Positions 17,175 to 53,106 of a stretch of 64,000 bases of DNA are shown in pieces (position 1 is the stretch's first letter; each line of letters starts with the position of its first letter). The DNA lies in the NCBI GenBank assembly GCA_038226175.1, contig JBBRQP010000008.1, forward strand, positions 2,711 through 66,710. Reading direction: 5' to 3'. The notes beneath the pieces are model-generated. The model ran no database searches. It had not been told where the DNA came from and worked only from the letters and a program-made list of their open reading frames with translations. Origin of the DNA: Gloeobacterales cyanobacterium. Lineage in GTDB: Bacteria > Cyanobacteriota > Cyanobacteriia > Gloeobacterales > Anthocerotibacteraceae. Made by a program: the position numbers and the translations under genes.

Positions 17175-17331
17175 ATTCTCACTCCCGGTTATCTGAGTTC
17201 AATTGTGCTGTGTCAGGGGTAACTTAGAACAAAATACCGATAGTCTTTCACAAATCGAATCGTCAATATAGGAGCGACTACAAACATAGAATTAGCCAAA
17301 AAGGCATAAAAAGGATGTATTATTCATTAAT

Positions 17332-18063
17332 ATGAAGGAATTTACCCTCTACCCGCAAGCACCTATTACAGAAGCAATAATTGACTTTCAGGTGCAGCTA
17401 CCTGAAAACAGCAACCTTGATCAACTTTTAAGAGTAAGAGATTTTACTAAAACCGACTACCCTGTGCAGCAGTCATTGGAACAAATTAGTGGACAGATAG
17501 GCCAGGTTGTCAGTCTTGAAAAGTCTCACGTTGGCTATCAATTTTCTAACGCAGACAATAAGCAAGTATTTCGGGCTACTCTTAGAGGATTTTCATTCCA
17601 CCGACTTGCTCCGTACAGTGGCTGGGCATTATTCAAAAATGAAGCTCATCGGTTATGGACTATTTACAAAAAATCACTCACACCATTCATGATAAAAAGA
17701 GTAAGTCTACGGTATGTCAACCATTTAAATTTACCTTTGCAAATAGACGGCTCTCTAAATTTTCAGGACTATCTTACTGTGGTGCCCCCTGTACCTACCT
17801 CTATTTCCCAAGGCGTCAGCAGCTACCTTATCCAACTCCTACTGCCTCAACCAGAGATTGAAAGCATGTTGATGCTCAATCATGCGGTTGTTGAGTCGCC
17901 AAATCCAGATTTTGTCTCTGTCGTTCTAGATATTGAGATTTATCACGAAAAAGATATGGACAATGGGCAACAGGTTTGGGATATTTTAGAGTTATGCCGT
18001 AACCGCAAAAATCAAGTTTTTGAGGAATGCATCACCGACCAAACTAGGGAGCTTTTTAAATGA
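17332..18063 (+). CDS. Uncharacterised protein, TIGR04255-like (assignment from memory of the N-terminal signature)
   Basis: 243 aa. The N-terminal YPQAPITEAIIDFQV resembles the Y-x-x-AP-[IL]-x-E-[AV] start of the TIGR04255 family. It is AT-rich, and its stop overlaps the next ATG (ATGA at 18060-18063). Confidence 0.55.
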   Translation: MKEFTLYPQAPITEAIIDFQVQLPENSNLDQLLRVRDFTKTDYPVQQSLEQISGQIGQVVSLEKSHVGYQFSNADNKQVFRATLRGFSFHRLAPYSGWALFKNEAHRLWTIYKKSLTPFMIKRVSLRYVNHLNLPLQIDGSLNFQDYLTVVPPVPTSISQGVSSYLIQLLLPQPEIESMLMLNHAVVESPNPDFVSVVLDIEIYHEKDMDNGQQVWDILELCRNRKNQVFEECITDQTRELFK

Positions 18064-18392
18064 GCTTATACTATCCTTCCCTTCCTGCACATGCTGACCC
18101 GTTTAAGTGGCATCGCCAAGAAATCTCTTTACATAGCTTAGAAGGTAAAGCTTTACAAAATAAAGAGCGTACAGCTTTCTTTGATACTCAAAAAACAGCC
18201 TGTGGCACTGCTACTAAGCATTTTTTTAGGGTTGTTGAAAGCGAAGTCTCTGTTGAAAAAGTAGTAGATGAAGACGACTTTTCGTATAACTCTATACCTG
18301 CTAAAGAAAGACGATTTATCAATGTGCGATTTGTTCATCGAGGGCGTAGGCTCGCCAAGCCCTATAGCCTAGAAGATGAAAATGAAGAATGA
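18060..18392 (+). CDS. Hypothetical protein (110 aa), middle gene of the cassette
   Basis: It is translationally coupled on both sides. It has a basic patch (RFVHRGRRLAKP) followed by an acidic tail (LEDENEE). I recognise no domain. Confidence 0.5.
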   Translation: MSLYYPSLPAHADPFKWHRQEISLHSLEGKALQNKERTAFFDTQKTACGTATKHFFRVVESEVSVEKVVDEDDFSYNSIPAKERRFINVRFVHRGRRLAKPYSLEDENEE

Positions 18393-18395
18393 CCC

Positions 18396-18914
18396 ATGAG
18401 TCAGAAATCTTTTTGGGTTAAAGCACAAGGATCTTCACTCCTTCAAGGTGATCTCTTGGAAGATTGTTGGATTCCTATACTTGGCGAAGAATATGGCGAA
18501 GATGACAGTCAAATGATAATTCCCATAGATAAAGTTAACCTTATTGTCTTAACTCAAAGTTGTGATTTGGAGAATGGCAAAGTTGACCTAGTCGCTATGT
18601 GTCCCATATTCAAGTTGATTGATTTTGAAGAGATTAATCCTAATTTTGCAAAGAAGTGGGAAGAGGTTCGTAAAGGCAGGATTGAAGGTTTACATTTACT
18701 AGCCTCCCCAACGAATCCAGAAAATAATCGTGAAGCACTAGTAGTGGATTTTCGAGAAATTTATAGCCTGCCTATAGGATATCTAAAACGTAGAGCTACG
18801 CAAGCAGAATCTCACTGGCGTTTAGACTCTCCTTATCTAGAACACTTTTCTCAATCGTTTGCTCGATTTTTTATGAGAGTAGGATTACCATCTGCGATTG
18901 CGCCTTTTAAATAA
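18396..18914 (+). CDS. Hypothetical protein (172 aa) with a conserved-looking TQSCDL motif
   Basis: It starts 3 nt after the previous stop. A hydrophobic strand, NLIVL, is followed by TQSCDLENGK. The C-terminus reads SPYLEHFSQSFARFFMRVGLP. I recognise no family. Confidence 0.55.
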   Translation: MSQKSFWVKAQGSSLLQGDLLEDCWIPILGEEYGEDDSQMIIPIDKVNLIVLTQSCDLENGKVDLVAMCPIFKLIDFEEINPNFAKKWEEVRKGRIEGLHLLASPTNPENNREALVVDFREIYSLPIGYLKRRATQAESHWRLDSPYLEHFSQSFARFFMRVGLPSAIAPFK

Positions 18915-19085
18915 TAGTCAGCTCTCGCGTGACCAGACAACACTACAAACAAAAGCATTAGAGAGGTGTTGATGCGTTGCCAGGACGTAGATTAAGCAAG
19001 CCACCGCCCAGATAGTTTTTCAGTCATACCTTTTCCAGTTGGGCTTGATGAGGCACAATGATAAGAAGCAATCAGGAAACAATCG

Positions 19086-38216: not shown

Positions 38217-39560
38217 CTACTTCTGTACCTTTTTACGACCACGTTGCTTTGTATCTCCTACTTGAGATCTTATGCGTTCTAAAAGAACACTGGCAGGCTC
38301 ATCATTGGGGTCTTGGGGGACTAGCTCACCCCGAAAGGCTTTGGCTAGGGTGGCTTGCTCTAGGCGGGTGCGGAGACGTTGAGCTTGTGCTAACTCAAAA
38401 TAAATCGTATTGATTGCTGACATTGAGTTATCGACAAGGCGGAGTAACTCATCCATCCCATTAGCTGGAGGAAGTGGAATAGGTGTACTTTTTAACACCT
38501 TGCCATTAATCTTCGGCATATTGCCAGCAGTGCCAGTTGCATTGGATTGAAAATATTGGCGAGCTATATCTGAGTTAAGGTATCTCCATAAGTATGTACC
38601 TAATGAGTTACTAGATACCCTAATTCGCATCATCAAATCAGGGTAGATATAAGTTTGTTCTGGTCCATCAAATATAGCTGTTGCACCGACATACTCTAAT
38701 GAGTTAGCACGTTGTACAAGAATATCGCCCTTTCGCAGCCAGTACTTAGCATTTGGTGGAATACTTTCATTAAGACGCTTTACTGCTTTAGGCGATAAAT
38801 CTAATATGCCGCGAGTTGTTGCTGTTAGCTTAAGGCTTAAGGTGCCTTGCCCATCTTCAGATGCTTGAGGAGAATAGCTATTAGTTGGTCCCTCTTGTAC
38901 CAAATTCTCCAATAGGAATTCCTTCCACCCTACTAACTCCTCAGTCCCCCGCCAATCCGCCGTCAACTCTCCTCGAAACGCAGCAGCCAACACAGCCTGT
39001 TTATACCGTTCAATGAGCCGAGGGATATGAGCCAACTCATCACGAGCACGAGTACTGTAGGTCATCAGGGCATCTAGCTTAGCTACAATGCGCTTTTGTT
39101 CGGGGAGAGGGGGAATCCCAATCTGAATTTCGGCAACTGCCTTCGGCCTAGCTCGCATTAACGAGCCACCTACACCGGAGACGTTGGATAAGAAGACTTG
39201 CCGAAATGCAGGTTCGGAAAGTGCATAGCGTAGGTAGTCTGGGTCACCAATGGAAGAGCGAATTACAATCCATTCCCCAGACGCAATCTGGCGGTTGAGC
39301 CCTTTTGGAGCAACTTTCCAGACACGGTTTATATGCGGGACAATCTTACAAAGAAGGACATCATTAGGCTCAACTGATTGCTTAGTAGAGCCAATATTAC
39401 TACCAGGTAGAACCTCTGGTGCTGAACAGGAAAAGGATGGAACACTGTAGAGCTCAAACGTCTCTGCTGGGTAACGGACAGGATCTACATTTGGAGTAGA
39501 CGGCATTCCCACTTCTTTAAGTGGAAGATTAAGCCAGCTTTCAAGAAGGATCTTCTTCAT
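38217..39560 (-). CDS. hsdS: Type I restriction-modification system specificity subunit
   Basis: 447 aa. Two variable target-recognition regions are separated by conserved helices (LPEQKRIVAKLDAL..., AAFRGELT) and repeated at the C-terminus (LAKAFRGELVPQDPNDEPA). Confidence 0.9.
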   Translation of the reverse strand: MKKILLESWLNLPLKEVGMPSTPNVDPVRYPAETFELYSVPSFSCSAPEVLPGSNIGSTKQSVEPNDVLLCKIVPHINRVWKVAPKGLNRQIASGEWIVIRSSIGDPDYLRYALSEPAFRQVFLSNVSGVGGSLMRARPKAVAEIQIGIPPLPEQKRIVAKLDALMTYSTRARDELAHIPRLIERYKQAVLAAAFRGELTADWRGTEELVGWKEFLLENLVQEGPTNSYSPQASEDGQGTLSLKLTATTRGILDLSPKAVKRLNESIPPNAKYWLRKGDILVQRANSLEYVGATAIFDGPEQTYIYPDLMMRIRVSSNSLGTYLWRYLNSDIARQYFQSNATGTAGNMPKINGKVLKSTPIPLPPANGMDELLRLVDNSMSAINTIYFELAQAQRLRTRLEQATLAKAFRGELVPQDPNDEPASVLLERIRSQVGDTKQRGRKKVQK

Positions 39561-39758
39561 ACTTCCACCCCCTCTAAAACAACAGATTCAACCATGATCA
39601 ACTCTTTTATCCTCACCATGTAGGAGGTTGATACCGTACTGGGCGTTGTCTCCAATCTACAGGAAAACCCAACTGATTTAGAGTCGTTTGTGATTGTTTA
39701 TTTAGCAACTCGATTAGCCGTTGCCGCCAAGGGGGATTTTACTCATGACCCCCTGCCC

Positions 39759-39810
39759 AAAAAAAAGTAACCCCCACGTTTGAGGCTGCCGAAGCACTAG
39801 CCTTGGAGGG
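39759..39810 (-). terminator. Possible hairpin plus T8 tract between hsdM and hsdS
   Basis: The minus strand reads CCCTCCAAGGCTAGTGCTTCGGCAGCCTCAAACGTGGGGGTTAC followed by TTTTTTTT. There is an inner stem with a UUCG loop. The stem is imperfect and the T-tract is offset. Confidence 0.3.
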
Positions 39811-39860
39811 TTTTATTACTACTATGATAACCCAAATATTGATAATTTTTGACAAAATCG

Positions 39861-41375
39861 TCATGCCGTCCAGACCTCGCTAGTAGTTTCCGGCTCTCGT
39901 TCAATAGTTACTAATTCTTCACTCAATGCCTCTATCTCCTCCAGCGCATTCCGCAAATGTTGAGCAATCGCCGCCGCCAACTCCTCCGGCTCCGTCAATT
40001 CATCCTCAGGGTCTTGGCTCTCATCCCGCAACCAAGCAATATCCAGATTGTCATTACGAGCAGCTATCTGGTCACGGCTAAAGCAACGGAAACGACCTTC
40101 CTCCCCCTGGTCAACACGGGGCGATAGCCCGTAGGGGTCATCCCCGAAGCACTGCTCAAACTCAGCAAAATCCTCAACTTTCAAGGGGCGCGTCTTGCCA
40201 TAGCTCGGCGCATTAGCCCGCATATCGTAAACCCATACATCCTTGGTGCTAGCGCGGTCAGCCTTACCCCGTGCCAGAAACACCACATTAGTCTTGACCC
40301 CTTGAGCATAAAAAATCCCCGTAGGCAGTCTCAAGATCGTATGCACATGACACCGCTCCATCATCTCCTGGCGCAAGCGACGACCCGTATTGTCCTCAAA
40401 AAGGACATTATCCGGTAACACCACCGCTGCTCTTCCCCCTGGCTTTAAGGCTCGATAGATATGCTCCACAAAGGCCAACTGTTTATTGCTGGTGTTGGCA
40501 GTGATCGAGAAATCATTACGGGTCGGTCGTCCCCCGCCCTTTTTAGTGCCAAAGGGCGGATTAGTTAAGATGACATCCGCTCTACCCAAGGCTTGCCCAT
40601 CGGGAGATAAGGTATCGCCAGACCCGACTGGGCTTTCGATGCCGTGGAGCATCAGGTTCATCAGACAAAGTTTATGGGTATCAGGCACCAGTTCTAGCCC
40701 CGTAAAAGCAACCTGGCGTGGGAAGTGCTGTTGTTCGGTGGTCAAACTATATAAATCCTTGGTTTGCGCCTTGATGTAATGGTCTGCTGCCACCAAAAAT
40801 CCACCTGTACCCGCTGCGGGGTCTTGGATAATCTCTCCCACTTTGGGCTTGACCAGCCGGACAATGCAATCAATTAGCGGTCGAGGCGTGAAGTATTGCC
40901 CGGCTCCCGACTTCTTCTCCGAGGCATTCTTTTCTAGCAAACCCTCATAAAGATTACCTAAACCCTCTTCGCGCGCTGAGAACCAGTCCAGACGCTCAAT
41001 GGCCGTGGTGAGAGATTTGAGATTGGCGGGTTTACGCAGCGAAGTTTGAGCATCCGCAAAGATAGCCTTAGTCCGGGCATCGCCAAAATGCTGCTTATCC
41101 GGTGCCGAGGAACCCAAGTCCAAGAGCATTTGCTTATAGTGGGTCAGCTGGGCTTCCCCCTCACGGTGGGTGAGTTCAGACCAGCGGTAGTTAGCAGGGA
41201 GCAAATTTTCTCGTCCTGTCTCCGCCAACATCTTGAGAAATAGCAGGTAGGTGAGTTCGGTAACGTATAGCTGGTAGGTAATGCCATCATCCCGCAGGAT
41301 ATTACACAAATTCCATAACTTAGCGACAATATCGCGGGTACTAGCCGTTAGCTGATTCAACCGACCACACTCCAA
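39861..41375 (-). CDS. hsdM: Type I restriction-modification system DNA methyltransferase subunit
   Basis: It has the HsdM N-terminal domain (LWNLCNILRDDGI...YVTELTYLLFLK), the SAM motif DPAAGTGGF and the catalytic NPPFG. It overlaps hsdR by 19 nt. Confidence 0.95.
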   Translation of the reverse strand: MECGRLNQLTASTRDIVAKLWNLCNILRDDGITYQLYVTELTYLLFLKMLAETGRENLLPANYRWSELTHREGEAQLTHYKQMLLDLGSSAPDKQHFGDARTKAIFADAQTSLRKPANLKSLTTAIERLDWFSAREEGLGNLYEGLLEKNASEKKSGAGQYFTPRPLIDCIVRLVKPKVGEIIQDPAAGTGGFLVAADHYIKAQTKDLYSLTTEQQHFPRQVAFTGLELVPDTHKLCLMNLMLHGIESPVGSGDTLSPDGQALGRADVILTNPPFGTKKGGGRPTRNDFSITANTSNKQLAFVEHIYRALKPGGRAAVVLPDNVLFEDNTGRRLRQEMMERCHVHTILRLPTGIFYAQGVKTNVVFLARGKADRASTKDVWVYDMRANAPSYGKTRPLKVEDFAEFEQCFGDDPYGLSPRVDQGEEGRFRCFSRDQIAARNDNLDIAWLRDESQDPEDELTEPEELAAAIAQHLRNALEEIEALSEELVTIEREPETTSEVWTA

Positions 41376-44300
41376 ATTTCTTCATTGATATCACCCAGGA
41401 TGGTTTCTAACTTACCATCAAACCGCTTATTCAAATTAGCAAACCCCCCGGTATCCACCTTAAATTGGTCGGAGTCGAGAGCTTCGCGGTCTACCACAAT
41501 CTCCTTAATAAACTGGTCACCAATCCGCTTCAACCATTTACGTTGGATTTCCGTCCAGGCATGACGTTTGAGGATGCGTTCCATCGCCGCTTTAACCCTG
41601 TCCTCATAGGGAATCAGGGCATCCCCTAAAGCAGCACGGCGGATAAAACCAATAATCGAAGCGGCAATATCCTCATTTTTAGCATCCTGCCAAGCCCGTC
41701 GCAGATTGGTATCCGAGTACCCCAAGCGGTCTAGCTCTAGCCGTAGCGCTTTAAGTTGGGCACGGGTTAGGTCACGGGGCCGTTGGGTCACGACGCTGAG
41801 TGCCACTATCTCATTGAGGTTATTGCGCACAAAGGCGGTGAAGGCATCCAGGAAATCTTCTGGCTTCTGCCCTGAGCCATAGCCCCGCGTTATCGAACGA
41901 AGGGAATCGGGGTGGTTGGAGATGGGTAATACCGACCCTCTACCCTGATCAGGGTTCCAATCCAAAATTAGGCCAAGGTTAGGTTTATCGCTTGCCCATT
42001 GCGCCAATTGCTGAGCGGGTTCCGTGCGCAGCCTCACCAAGGTTTCCTCTGGGGTCTCCCCTATTTCCTGCTGGTACAGCTCCCGCGCTTCGGCATTGAG
42101 CTTAGTGAGGCGACGGCGCAGCTTGACCACGATTTGTTCAATAATCGTGTCCTGGTGGTTGACGGCCTCTTGCTTTTGGAGTTCCTCAAAAAGTTGGGTC
42201 AGGGTAATGGATGGGTCAGCTACCACGGGCTTCATTGTGGTCACCGCTTCCAGGGTGCTGTACACGTCTACGGCATCAAAAATACGAAAGGTTTCTTTGC
42301 CAATCTCTGGGCATTGGCGGGTTGCCCGACCCATCATTTGTTCATAGAGAATGCGGCTATTGACCCGACGCAAGAAAACCAGATTGGTAATACTAGGAAC
42401 ATCAATCCCTGTCGTTAAAAGGTCTACCGTCACAGCAATTTTAGGCAAGGGGTCATTACGGAAGGCCAAGATTAAGTCCCGCACCCGGTCGACACTCCCG
42501 GTAATTTTTTTAATCGTCGCATCATCTATCTCCCCAAAACGTTCTGCAAACACCTGTTTGAGTTGGTTGACCACAATATCGGCATGACCATTATTCACAG
42601 CAAAGATCAGGGTTTTACCCGGTTCGGCAGGGTCAATATAATCGGCAAGAGCCTCCGCTACCACCCGGTTAAAAGATTCGGTTATCACCTTGCGGTTAAA
42701 TTCTTCTACTTCATAGTTCAGCTCATCTGCCACAGCCACAGAATCTATGGTTCCTGTACCCGTATTGTAGAGTTGGACTTGCTCCCCCGTTCTAAATCTA
42801 ATACCCTCCTGGGCTAGAGCCGTCAGGATTTGGATAGGAGGTTCGTGGTCAATGAGATAGCCATCAATCACCGCCTCACGGTAGGAATAGGTATAGATGG
42901 GGTCACCAAAAATAGCAACGGTGTGTAGCGCAGGCGTAGCCGTCAGACCAATCTTGACCGCATCGAAATGTTCTAATACCCGACGGTACTTAGAAATGTA
43001 GTCTTCCTGAGAACGAAACTCAATTTCTGCATCTGATAACTCCCGGTCTAGCAAATACCCGCGATGGCATTCATCCACTACCAGCAAGTCATATTGGTCT
43101 ACTGGGGGTATATCTGCTGGCTCACTGGCATAGAGTACCCGCTTCACCAGCCCTTGGATCGTGCAGATATGGACTTTGGTTTCTGAATCCGGCTTAACCT
43201 CTTTCAATTCTTTGAGCCCGAAAGTATCGGCAAAGGTGCGGATACTCACCACCTTCGTGGTCTTAAATTCTCTTGCTGCCTGTTCCCCTAGGGCACTACG
43301 GTCAACCACAAAACAGATGCGCTTAAACCGCTTGGCACTGAGCAACCGATAGAGCAAAGCAATTGCCAGTTTGGTTTTACCCGTACCTGTTGCCATCGCC
43401 ACCAACATCCGCCGTTGGTCTTGCTCCAGAGCGTTTTCAATATTCTCGATTGCCTGACGCTGATAGGGTCGTAGCGGGAAGCCAAATTCCATGGTTTGGG
43501 TTTTGAGGGCGCGATGGGCATCTTCCCGATCCATTTCTAAGAGGTTGACTAGTCCTTCCGGGGTATACCAATCCATCAGAGCCCGGCGCAGATTGGTCGG
43601 TTTACGGGCATCCCGGAACCAAATTCCACTTTCTGTTTCTAATTGTTTTAGGTAAGGCCGCCCATTAGCACTAAACAAAAAAGGCACCTTAAATTGTTGA
43701 CCTTTGCCGTCCTGCCAAGGCTCACCCGCAAAAACAACGCCCGCTTTGGCCTCTATCCCCCGTGCATAGCGTTCTACTTGGTCAATACAGGCCGAGACAT
43801 TTTTGTTCTTCTTTTTAGCTTCTACTAGGCCGAGGCAGGTGGTACCCACGAACAGCGCGTAATCAGCAGGGTCACTTACGGTTGGCCATTCGGCAATGGC
43901 AAAGTTACGTCCCCGTACCGGACGGGTGCCTTTGCTATAACGGAGAGTTTCTGTATCAACTTCCCAGCCCCGGTCTCTAAGTTGCTGGTCAATAATCGCT
44001 CGCGTCCCAGCTTCATCCAAACCAAGGGTTTTTCCAAGATCCTGAGCTATTTGAATCTGGCGAGCTTGTTGTTCCTGGGGAACTAAAGTAGCGGTCTGTT
44101 GCAGGGTCTTTAATTCCTGAACTAACACTTGCTTAGCGGCTTCCGCTTCCGAAGCTAATTGCTCCCAAAGGGCTTTTTCCTCGGCTTCTTTGGCTACCCG
44201 TTGATCTGCTGAGAGCAGAACTTCAGCTTGGTGGCGGGCCTCTTCTTTAGCGCGCTCAGTGTCGGTTTGACTGGCAATCAGTTCCCTTTGTAACTGAGCT

Positions 44301-44758
44301 AGATCCTCCCGTAATTGTTCTGATGGATCTGCTGGGGGTGTCGGCGGCACAAAGGAGCCTGTCGAGAATTTCTGGTCTGTACCAAAGCTACGTTGGAACC
44401 AAATGCCGAGTTGATGGGCAATTTTAAGAGCCGTAAGGGCAGTACCGTGATTGCCTGTATAGTTATGAGCCGCCTCATTACCTCGACTCCGCAGATGATG
44501 GAAATACTCTGAGACCTGTGGGCTTAAAGCTCCTTCCTGTTTTAAGCGCCGTAACAGCTCAGACTGACTCTCTTGGGGGTCTTTTAAAAGTCCTAAGCTG
44601 GCTGCGGTGAGTTGTGCCAAAAATTCACTATATTGCCGGAGTTTGATTAGGGTGGTATTGGGATCTTCCTGAAAATAGCGTTCTGCCAACGACCCAAGCC
44701 GCACTAATTGGGCATCAAAAGCCTTGAGATGATTAAAGTTTTTGGACTCTGGTAACAC
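41357..44758 (-). CDS. hsdR: Type I restriction enzyme R subunit with an N-terminal DUF4145-like and coiled-coil extension
   Basis: 1133 aa. It has the PD-(D/E)xK region (ADYALF...LVEAKKK), helicase motif I MATGTGKT, motif II VVDECHR and motif VI QMMGRATR. The first approximately 250 aa have a RGNEAAHNY-type DUF4145 signature followed by a Glu/Gln/Ala-rich coiled coil. Confidence 0.95.
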   Translation of the reverse strand: MLPESKNFNHLKAFDAQLVRLGSLAERYFQEDPNTTLIKLRQYSEFLAQLTAASLGLLKDPQESQSELLRRLKQEGALSPQVSEYFHHLRSRGNEAAHNYTGNHGTALTALKIAHQLGIWFQRSFGTDQKFSTGSFVPPTPPADPSEQLREDLAQLQRELIASQTDTERAKEEARHQAEVLLSADQRVAKEAEEKALWEQLASEAEAAKQVLVQELKTLQQTATLVPQEQQARQIQIAQDLGKTLGLDEAGTRAIIDQQLRDRGWEVDTETLRYSKGTRPVRGRNFAIAEWPTVSDPADYALFVGTTCLGLVEAKKKNKNVSACIDQVERYARGIEAKAGVVFAGEPWQDGKGQQFKVPFLFSANGRPYLKQLETESGIWFRDARKPTNLRRALMDWYTPEGLVNLLEMDREDAHRALKTQTMEFGFPLRPYQRQAIENIENALEQDQRRMLVAMATGTGKTKLAIALLYRLLSAKRFKRICFVVDRSALGEQAAREFKTTKVVSIRTFADTFGLKELKEVKPDSETKVHICTIQGLVKRVLYASEPADIPPVDQYDLLVVDECHRGYLLDRELSDAEIEFRSQEDYISKYRRVLEHFDAVKIGLTATPALHTVAIFGDPIYTYSYREAVIDGYLIDHEPPIQILTALAQEGIRFRTGEQVQLYNTGTGTIDSVAVADELNYEVEEFNRKVITESFNRVVAEALADYIDPAEPGKTLIFAVNNGHADIVVNQLKQVFAERFGEIDDATIKKITGSVDRVRDLILAFRNDPLPKIAVTVDLLTTGIDVPSITNLVFLRRVNSRILYEQMMGRATRQCPEIGKETFRIFDAVDVYSTLEAVTTMKPVVADPSITLTQLFEELQKQEAVNHQDTIIEQIVVKLRRRLTKLNAEARELYQQEIGETPEETLVRLRTEPAQQLAQWASDKPNLGLILDWNPDQGRGSVLPISNHPDSLRSITRGYGSGQKPEDFLDAFTAFVRNNLNEIVALSVVTQRPRDLTRAQLKALRLELDRLGYSDTNLRRAWQDAKNEDIAASIIGFIRRAALGDALIPYEDRVKAAMERILKRHAWTEIQRKWLKRIGDQFIKEIVVDREALDSDQFKVDTGGFANLNKRFDGKLETILGDINEEIWSVVG

Positions 44759-47419: not shown

Positions 47420-47526
47420 AGGGTTATTGTGACACGAACTATCCAGCTATATGCAAGGCCAAAAAAATCCTAGGACAAGGTGTCACCTTTACCCCTGGCA
47501 ATCTGCTGTTACTATGTGTATGGGTT

Positions 47527-47599
47527 GGGCCGTTGGCCGAACGGTTGAGGCAGCGAGCTCATAATTCGCCTTAAGCAGGTTCAACTCCTGCACGGCCCA
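47527..47599 (+). tRNA. tRNA with CAU anticodon (elongator Met or lysidine-modified Ile2)
   Basis: It folds by hand into a cloverleaf: acceptor GGGCCGT/ACGGCCC, D-stem GCC/GGC, anticodon stem GCGAG/TTCGC with loop CTCATAA, and T-arm GCAGG-TTCAACT-CCTGC. It has no encoded CCA and no initiator features. Confidence 0.85.
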
Positions 47600-47632
47600 T
47601 TCCCTGTTACTTTAGCGGTAAGGTTGTTGCTG

Positions 47633-53025: not shown

Positions 53026-53106
53026 TGCCGATGGTCAGACTCGAACTGACAAGGGTTGCCCCATTCGATTTTGAGTCGAACGCGTCTACCATTCCACCAC
53101 ATCGGC
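53026..53106 (-). tRNA. tRNA-Leu (CAA)
   Basis: The reverse complement folds as acceptor GCCGATG/CATCGGC, anticodon arm TTCGA-CTCAAAA-TCGAA, a long variable arm TGGGGCAACCCTT, and T-arm GTCAG-TTCGAGT-CTGAC. 81 nt, with no intron. Confidence 0.9.

Follow-up and report, generated by a model that had tools for sequence, protein, structure and literature searches.

Toxin-antitoxin (TA) modules of type II such as MazEF, Kis-Kid, and CcdAB join a toxin of SH3-like barrel fold to a small partner encoded directly upstream; MazE, Kis, and CcdA bind their toxins through their C termini, and antitoxins usually diverge faster than their toxins. Other operons combine a TA pair with an accessory protein, which is a SecB-like chaperone in toxin-antitoxin-chaperone (TAC) operons such as CmdTAC, where the chaperone gene comes last, and the ribbon-helix-helix (RHH) repressor omega, encoded first, in omega-epsilon-zeta systems. 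The RnlAB/LsoAB toxin systems use tandem domains that resemble the TATA-box-binding protein (TBP), and in the anti-phage TA toxin RnlA these are fused to a HEPN RNase. RnlA needs its TBP1 domain both for activity and for binding its RNA substrate (PMC8266594). The TBP-like domain of RNase HIII binds RNA/DNA hybrids (PMC3710099). In type II Gabija, the anti-phage effector GajC, which has experimental support (PMC13069673), is a split and divergent MazF-fold protein; it contains a 5-helix insertion and acts together with the UvrD-type helicase GajB. PDC-M32, itself a computational candidate, has been noted in prophages (PMC12429752). We analyzed a three-gene cassette at 17332-18914 in 64,000 nucleotides (nt) of DNA from a Gloeobacterales cyanobacterium (assembly GCA_038226175.1, contig JBBRQP010000008.1, positions 2,711 to 66,710), a stretch that we call the window. 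On balance, we read the cassette as a TA-like module of type II that is tripartite and horizontally mobile, with a modular accessory of TBP-like fold.

The cassette comprises gene 1 (17332-18063, 243 amino acids [aa]), gene 2 (18060-18392, 110 aa), and gene 3 (18396-18914, 172 aa), all on the plus strand. In the sequence itself, gene 2 starts within the end of gene 1 through an ATGA overlap (aaATGAgc, 18060-18063), and the 3-nt spacer ccc at 18393-18395 separates genes 2 and 3 (TGAcccATG), exactly as described in a first-pass annotation that had been made from the sequence alone. That annotation proposed a compositionally foreign defense or toxin module of one TIGR04255-like protein and two orphans. 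The foreign composition was borne out by a composition profile of the window, with a guanine-plus-cytosine (GC) fraction of 0.38 to 0.41 in the cassette versus 0.47 to 0.53 on both sides, and we take the low-GC islet at 17175-19085 (no strand) to be a horizontally acquired segment. The plus-strand intergenic region at 17175-17331, between the divergent mtnP gene and gene 1, is the presumed promoter or operator site of the cassette.

The AlphaFold2 (AF2) model of gene 3 (predicted local distance difference test score [pLDDT], 89; predicted template modeling score [pTM], 0.83) has the SH3-like barrel of MazF, Kid, and CcdB, with template modeling (TM) scores of 0.62 to 0.70 normalized to the toxin. 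Apart from one low-probability exception, the top ~44 Foldseek matches in the PDB were MazF, MoxT, YdcE, Kid, CcdB, and CptN. The best was 4mdx_A (E = 1.9e-3; probability, 1.0; TM, 0.68 normalized to the target), and CcdB was a weak match (4elz_D; E = 0.24). We regard this fold assignment from a predicted model as solid, and we favor a TA-like module because the top PDB matches of such a confident model are nearly all toxins. Gene 3 is also not the orphan it had been taken for, since it has 3,147 homolog clusters (90% clustering), typically 55 to 65% identical, from at least 12 phyla. Gene 3 is ~60 aa longer than the MazF, Kid, and CcdB toxins, and the alignment of its family contains 35 invariant residues. 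The invariant motif T53-Q54-S55-C56-D57-L58 (18552-18569, plus strand) ends the strand that corresponds, in a local hhalign register against Bacillus subtilis MazF, to the MazF RPxLVxS strand. A near-invariant C-terminal segment (residues 145 to 165; 18828-18890, plus strand) reads SP[FY]LEHFSQxFARFFMRVGLP; residues 147 to 160 form a helix in the model, which is a candidate active-site or target-binding helix. A C-terminal helix that contacts GyrA is part of how the CcdB family of gyrase poisons is defined.

Gene 2 had no detectable pairwise relative, as both a word-indexed search of 5.8 billion clusters and an exhaustive phmmer search of 1.84 billion representatives returned nothing but the query itself. 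When a profile was built from the 76 other middle genes, with gene 2 of the window left out, it found this gene 2 with 42 bits (E = 1e-11), and the best of 2,000 shuffled controls reached 8.6 bits. Detection by a synteny-derived profile makes gene 2 a fast-evolving family member and not an orphan. An alignment of 80 middle genes defined a conserved C-terminal module (approximately residues 75 to 110; 18282-18389, plus strand) with the pattern SY..P.K..F.V.VR[YF]..G[RK]..P..Y.L[DE][DE], followed by an acidic tail: the final 12 residues of the family have a net charge whose median is -2. We predict that this module is the toxin-binding segment. The N-terminal half is variable and probably disordered, and Pfam contained no recognizable DNA-binding domain for gene 2. 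Middle genes of other cassettes align to gene 2 of the window at 18 to 27% identity versus ~60% for gene 3, and this far faster divergence of the small partner is another reason for reading the pair as antitoxin and toxin.

We scanned one genome per species for gene 3 and found at least 557 relatives, of which the best 80 loci were analyzed in detail; with three more from exact look-up, there were 82 distinct loci, 76 of them informative and 6 uninformative. The best 80 loci come from Cyanobacteria, Planctomycetota, Acidobacteriota, Nitrospirota, Alpha-, Beta-, Gamma-, and Deltaproteobacteria, Myxococcota, Gemmatimonadota, Chloroflexota, Elusimicrobiota, Chlamydiota, Actinomycetota, and Armatimonadota. 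Gene 1 lies directly upstream in 54 of the 76 informative loci (~70%), with a middle-gene slot of 270 to 370 nt and overlaps of mostly -1 or -4 nt, so that the three genes do recur in this order across unrelated genomes, as the first-pass annotation had asked of a genuine module. The remaining 22 (29%) have ample upstream sequence and no TIGR04255 gene within 8 kb. We rejected the idea that these duo loci conceal a divergent TIGR04255 gene, as hmmsearch with the --max option was negative and the upstream genes were heterogeneous.

Trio and duo loci alike have, directly next to gene 3, a small open reading frame (ORF) that carries the C-terminal motif of gene 2. Whether or not gene 1 is present, genes 2 and 3 are neighbors in essentially all of the 76 informative loci, and their gaps of -4 to +8 nt in unrelated genomes are those of the coupled, co-oriented pair by which type II TA systems are generically recognized. 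The order from small partner to toxin, together with this tight coupling, fits mazEF, kis-kid, and ccdAB, and we count it in favor of a TA-like module, as we do the presence in all architectures of a small upstream ORF with the C-terminal motif and acidic tail. In the gene 3 phylogeny, duo and trio sequences are intermixed, 11 of 21 duo sequences being nearest to a trio sequence. This shows that genes 2 and 3 are the invariant core, which can stand alone, and that gene 1 has been repeatedly gained or lost, again supporting a TA-like pair. The coupling of all three genes in the window is real, but a core pair with TIGR04255 as its modular accessory describes the functional unit better than the three-gene unit of the first-pass annotation does. 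All 17 cyanobacterial loci are trios. One duo locus from a Nitrospirales metagenome-assembled genome (L058, 7753-8513) has a gene 2 shortened to 80 aa, whose C terminus is near-identical to those of trio loci of other Nitrospirales (L014 and L045), and no gene 1. Judged from the sequences, this locus looks like a recent gene 1 deletion, in which case gene 1 loss would be tolerated.

Gene 1 belongs to the NCBIfam family TIGR04255, as had been suspected, with a full-length hidden Markov model score of 134.5 bits against a curated cutoff of 30 (E = 5.4e-39; residues 7 to 243 on profile positions 2 to 252 of 252). Sequence searches matched it to no Pfam or PADLOC model and to no solved structure. 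The AF2 model, made with 53 homologs (pLDDT, 92; pTM, 0.87), consists by DSSP of two tandem S1-H1-S2-S3-S4-S5-H2 units arranged as a TBP-like pseudo-dimer. TBPs ranked top in a Foldseek search of the PDB (probability, 0.95 to 1.0; TM, 0.3 to 0.4), and the best matches in BFVD were likewise TBP-like and came from giant viruses, poxviruses, and asfarviruses. Gene 1 thus has the tandem repeats and pseudo-symmetric sheet of the TBP-domain superfamily at the level of fold. Since the TM scores are just 0.3 to 0.4, we limit the claim to a TBP-like fold and do not extend it to TBP homology, and a PDB profile search found no sequence-level relationship between gene 1 and TBP. Foldseek hits to CYTH/triphosphate-tunnel proteins were low ranked (probability, 0.07 to 0.33) and untrustworthy, and we keep them as a speculative lead at most.

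Seven residues (Y95, W98, R127, N130, D200, F230, and T235) are invariant in all 138 gene 1 sequences, another four (E14, R123, D202, and P135) are nearly so, and the conserved residues form a charged constellation on one sheet face and the last helix. The charged residues (E14, R123, R127, N130, D200, D202, E231, T235, and R239, each invariant or near-invariant) alternate on beta strands (D200-x-D202 and R123-x-x-x-R127) and on the last helix, and they are retained even in plasmid homologs of 24% identity. This pattern suggests a ligand, nucleic-acid, or catalytic site. That TBP-like domains bind nucleic-acid substrates in RnlA (PMC8266594) and RNase HIII (PMC3710099) is a further reason for giving gene 1 an accessory role of this kind in a TA-like module.

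TIGR04255 genes are not restricted to this pair. When metagenome contigs were scanned with gene 1 as the reference, at least 479 relatives came to light, and 69 loci on metagenome and viral contigs had enough downstream sequence to judge the partners. Genes 2 and 3 followed in 28 of the 69 and other coupled pairs in 41, where the gene 1 relatives are of 36 to 45% identity. The commonest alternative pair has a middle protein of 165 to 205 aa (family d1A, 28 loci) and then a third protein of 150 to 170 aa from the related families d2A (16 loci), d2B (7 loci), and d2C (4 loci). These d1 and d2 families are not remote homologs of genes 2 and 3, with hhalign probabilities of at most 2.5%. Gene 1 clades track the downstream module, with a nearest-neighbor concordance of 74/75 and 21/21; the identity between partner types (43%) is just slightly lower than that within them (~50%). 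TIGR04255 therefore emerges as a common first gene for several unrelated toxin-type pairs, and the combination of partner exchange with clades that follow partner type is one more argument for the TA-like reading.

Distant TIGR04255 genes (24 to 33% identity) likewise head cassettes on plasmids and P2-like prophages. On the Vibrio parahaemolyticus plasmid CP063527.1 (L085, 158-2105), the TIGR04255 gene is followed by a gene for a 179-aa hypothetical protein and an overlapping zeta-toxin/AAA_33 kinase gene (Pfam Zeta_toxin, E = 3e-12), a layout like that of omega-epsilon-zeta with TIGR04255 in the omega position. The Crinalium epipsammum plasmid pCRI9333.03 (L084, 4001-5831) couples TIGR04255 to hypothetical proteins of 182 aa and 171 aa that are unrelated to all other partner families; this plasmid is mobilizable, and an HNH endonuclease and a DNA methyltransferase are encoded nearby. 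A TIGR04255 gene on a Thermus megaplasmid adjoins vapBC, a methylase gene, and cas6. The P2-like Ralstonia phage YO139_2 (ON170239.1; L087, 368-2061) has a TIGR04255-headed trio at one end of its genome, and two IMG/VR prophage contigs (L088, 16-1713, and L089, 3962-5659) repeat the arrangement. The middle genes of these prophage trios encode ~165 aa and the third genes ~146 to 156 aa, with weak matches to PDC-M32A and PDC-M32B. We regard the trios as candidates for prophage-encoded defense cargo.

We infer the following mechanism for the cassette of the window. Gene 3 would be the effector, a MazF/Kid/CcdB-type SH3-like barrel with a family-specific C-terminal helix, and free gene 3 would arrest growth by attacking a conserved cellular target, either RNA, as for MazF, or a protein such as gyrase, as for CcdB, presumably with an active or binding site of a non-canonical type. 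The cognate antitoxin would be gene 2, which is translated immediately upstream of gene 3 and would bind and mask it with a C-terminal strand and acidic tail. Gene 1 would be a translationally coupled, dispensable, and interchangeable accessory whose conserved charged sheet face may bind nucleic acid or another ligand and couple this signal to antitoxin stability or toxin release, which would make it a sensor, a regulator, or a substrate-recruiting subunit. The cassette thus resembles MazEF, Kis-Kid, and CcdAB in the fold of gene 3, in the small coupled partner gene directly upstream, in the conserved acidic C-terminal segment of that partner, which recalls the toxin-binding C termini of MazE, Kis, and CcdA, and in being mobile and sporadic. 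It differs from them in lacking sequence homology, in the extra length, invariant C-terminal helix, and TQSCDL motif of gene 3, in apparently not conserving the MazF catalytic Arg and Thr, in a gene 2 without an AbrB or RHH DNA-binding domain, and in its usual third gene, TIGR04255.

Several observations weigh against a TA-like module. Gene 3 has no sequence-level link to MazF, PemK, or CcdB: Pfam gave no match at E ≤ 1, which includes the PemK_toxin and CcdB families, a PDB profile search found no MazF, and hhalign against a MazF/Kid mini-alignment gave a probability below 1%. In the sole local hhalign register, which is not significant, the MazF catalytic Arg (R25, in the loop before strand 2) and Thr/Ser (T48) fall on the non-conserved gene 3 positions 47 and 72; the B. 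subtilis MazF sequence used here was validated against 4me7 and 4mdx. This placement of the catalytic residues makes MazF-type RNase chemistry doubtful for gene 3 as far as its sequence can tell. The gene 3 family is acidic (median isoelectric point [pI], ~5.75), which is atypical among RNA-binding toxins, and its conservation is very high, which is unusual for TA toxins. Neither a DNA-binding domain nor an autoregulatory operator was identified for the cassette, and the TM scores that link gene 1 to TBP are low.

A tentative alternative, which we consider possible but on the whole improbable, is that the cassette is an abortive-infection anti-phage system in which the TBP-like surface of gene 1 would sense a phage nucleic acid or protein and free gene 3 from gene 2. 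This proposal overlaps with the TA-like reading and makes defense the selected function. It rests mainly on the sibling cassettes borne by prophages and on similarity to PDC-M32. In P2-like Ralstonia prophages, the siblings occupy genome ends, a typical place for defense cargo, and the sibling d1A/d2A cassettes and the Ralstonia prophage copy match PADLOC PDC-M32A and PDC-M32B in their middle and third genes, weakly (E ~5e-6 to 1e-3) and in a mutually consistent way. We rejected the possibility that PDC-M32A is a TIGR04255-d1 fusion, as no TIGR04255 protein matches any PADLOC model. CmdTAC and RnlAB provide precedents for such a system. Among 150 ORFs sampled within 4 kb of the cassette at 48 genome loci were 3 to 4 Type I methyltransferases, 3 AAA_21/AriA-like ATPases, and 2 integrases, which points to some enrichment of the methyltransferases over chance, judged without a matched control. 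One locus in Caballeronia adjoins hipBA and a transposase gene, and the Thermus plasmid copy with its vapBC, methylase, and cas6 neighbors belongs here as well; another locus adjoins an SMC/AAA_23 protein gene.

The same neighborhoods also speak against an anti-phage function, since the remaining sampled neighbors are mostly heterogeneous housekeeping genes spread over 168 Pfam families, and the surroundings are far from the dense defense-island embedding of validated systems. The window copy sits between mtnP and cpcS. The Type I restriction-modification (R-M) system that the first-pass annotation had noted in the window is complete and lies at 38217-44758 on the minus strand, ~20 to 22 kb from the cassette and not adjacent to it. 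Its HsdR gene lies at 41357-44758 (PADLOC REase_I, E = 8e-256), and its partners match MTase_I (E = 7e-208) and Specificity_I (E = 5e-66); by size and adjacency, the methyltransferase is most likely 39861-41375 and the specificity subunit 38217-39560. The cassette proteins of the window had no PADLOC match at E ≤ 1, PDC-M32 included, and neither gene 2 nor gene 3 is related to the PDC-M32-like families. Gene 3 had no match among the 50,697 phage records of INPHARED or the 72,556 plasmid records of PLSDB and occurs on 3 of 2.9 million IMG/VR viral contigs. The toxin-type half of the original defense/toxin proposal was strengthened by the fold of gene 3, while the anti-phage half, with few defense neighbors and near-absence from phage and plasmid collections, is plausible and weakly supported. 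With PADLOC, three ORFs of the window also match mad2, at a best E of 7e-63, and a single ORF matches mad3 (E = 1.5e-31). Cassette neighbors in other genomes match these models as well, and the matches may reflect generic methyltransferase or ATPase similarity.

Two further alternatives, both of which we consider unlikely, differ from the TA-like reading in the role of gene 1. One takes it for an autorepressor, as in omega-epsilon-zeta, that would bind DNA with its TBP-like saddle and supply the regulatory role that gene 2 lacks. The archetypal TBP fold does bind DNA, gene 1 comes first in the operon as omega does, gene 2 has no recognizable DNA-binding domain, and the Vibrio plasmid cassette places a distant TIGR04255 gene before a hypothetical gene and a zeta toxin gene. 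However, gene 1 is missing from 29% of loci with genes 2 and 3, where no obvious lengthening of gene 2 is seen; the ATGA coupling suggests a stoichiometric complex and not a separate regulator; the conserved acidic residues E14, D200, and D202 on the sheet face are unfavorable for DNA binding; and the region upstream of gene 1 contained no operator repeats.

The other, to which we give the same low weight, makes gene 1 a dedicated chaperone of a TAC-like system that would stabilize a disordered gene 2 and might also sense the trigger, as in CmdTAC. TAC precedents exist, and the modularity is the same in that several unrelated TA pairs share a single accessory family, as with SecB-like chaperones; gene 1 clades follow partner type, genes 1 and 2 are translationally coupled, and the variable N-terminal half of gene 2 would suit such a client. 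Gene 1 nevertheless has neither a SecB-like fold nor a SecB Pfam match, it is encoded first and not last, and R127, N130, D200, D202, E231, and T235 resemble a ligand or catalytic site and not a hydrophobic client groove. Among the candidate roles of gene 1, we rank a sensor or substrate-recruiting subunit above both the chaperone and the DNA-binding repressor. The cassette shares with TAC, CmdTAC, and omega-epsilon-zeta operons the plan of a TA pair plus an accessory protein. It differs in its accessory, which is a TBP-like pseudo-dimer instead of a SecB-like chaperone or an RHH repressor and is encoded first and dispensable in 29% of loci.

The least likely alternative is a non-toxin complex for RNA processing or modification or for small-molecule sensing, with the MazF/CcdB-like barrel as mere scaffold, which would suit the unusual conservation of gene 3 (35 invariant residues and ~60% identity across phyla), its acidity, its missing MazF catalytic dyad in the tentative register, and the many loci among housekeeping genes but is hard to reconcile with a sporadic distribution typical of horizontal transfer, foreign GC content, the exchange of gene 1 partners, among them bona fide toxin families such as zeta, a fast-evolving small upstream partner, and a set of strong structural neighbors of gene 3 that are all toxins.

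Within the TA-like reading, a bolder joint proposal is speculative and in our estimation rather improbable as a whole. Here, TIGR04255 would be a widespread and hitherto overlooked TBP-fold hub, a sensor or enzyme serving several TA pairs, whose site of R127, N130, D200, D202, E231, and T235 would act on a ligand, nucleic acid or nucleotide, by binding or converting it and so make MazF/CcdB-fold, PDC-M32-like, and zeta pairs triggerable immune or stress modules. Gene 3 would at the same time represent a new toxin class, a barrel with a different active site formed by TQSCD and the C-terminal LEHFSQ..AR..MR helix, and its target would be neither the RNA substrate of MazF nor gyrase.

The remaining described systems resemble the cassette in single respects. 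Like RnlAB/LsoAB, it is a candidate toxin system with tandem TBP-like domains, but gene 1 is a separate polypeptide, its partner is a MazF/CcdB-fold protein, a HEPN domain is absent, and the sequences are not similar. PDC-M32 is weakly matched by the d1A-d2A siblings and the Ralstonia prophage trio, while genes 2 and 3 of the window are unmatched and by profile comparison unrelated to the d1 and d2 families. GajC is a precedent for gene 3 as a divergent MazF-fold effector, but the cassette has no helicase and differs in architecture and partners. Pfam, PADLOC, and PHROGs gave the cassette proteins only weak matches, to the functionally uncharacterized families phrog_5464 (gene 1) and phrog_4575 (gene 3), gene 3 had no match in the curated TIGR, Pfam, and PADLOC families, and PDB sequence and profile searches returned chance-level matches only (RpoS, FCP, and a portal protein). 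The proteins thus hit no metabolic family, and literature searches on TIGR04255 and on tripartite MazF-like systems found no description of the cassette and no mention of TIGR04255 in the searchable literature, in agreement with the earlier statement that no system of this composition had been described. The kind of system is known, namely, mobile type II or tripartite TA or abortive-infection modules. Its protein families are not known ones. By sequence, gene 3 falls outside PemK/MazF and CcdB while having their fold, gene 1 falls outside SecB, and the window proteins fall outside PDC-M32.

The flanks of the cassette argue for mobility. Family matches confirmed the mtnP-type gene (PNP_UDP_1, MtnP/MTA-phosphorylase type) and the CpeS/CpcS-type lyase gene on either side, and the flanks as a whole are cyanobacterial housekeeping genes that also include those for a TonB-dependent receptor, NdhN, an LmeA-like protein, and transaldolase. 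These flanking genes accompany the cassette in 0 of the 82 loci, and of the 17 cyanobacterial loci only those of Microcoleus congeners share flanks with one another. The interval is therefore not part of a conserved core pathway, another point on which the first-pass annotation stands. The lack of common flanks, the low GC content, and ~60% identity across phyla together indicate horizontal spread with many independent insertion sites. This sporadic distribution, over at least 12 phyla and with different flanks in each genus, is a last reason for favoring a TA-like module. One gene 3 copy lies on a Nostoc plasmid (L065).

If the proposed model is correct, it provides the first functional context for the sporadic TIGR04255 family, which has no Pfam or PADLOC model, and adds a large new MazF/CcdB-fold family with more than 3,100 clusters at 90% identity and matches in at least 550 species-representative genomes. 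The class of system is familiar; the family is large, uncharacterized, and cross-phylum, and gene 3 is abundant in understudied environmental phyla (Planctomycetota, Acidobacteriota, Nitrospirota, and Cyanobacteria). The model would also reveal an organization of one accessory with many toxin pairs, analogous to SecB in TAC or to the Panacea antitoxin domain, and walking downstream of TIGR04255 genes would then be a handle for finding further toxin pairs. The case of gene 2 shows that synteny-derived profiles can place in a family a protein that has no pairwise relative among 1.84 billion sequences.

Minor features of the locus were also recorded. A scan of the cassette for promoters (sigma-70 consensus) and terminators gave nothing exceeding shuffle expectation, and no tRNA, Rfam element, insertion scar, flanking direct repeat, or terminator was found at its borders. 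The sole RNA genes detected in the window are tRNA-Met (47526-47600) and tRNA-Leu (53026-53106). In a 90% clustering of ~15 billion proteins, each of MtnP, CpcS, gene 1, and gene 3 forms a singleton cluster, which indicates that the source cyanobacterium has no closely related genome in public collections. A 16-nt inverted repeat within coding sequence (17923-17938 and 18828-18843; 88% complementary, arms 889 nt apart) has one arm inside gene 1 and the other inside the conserved C-terminal segment of gene 3 and is probably due to chance.

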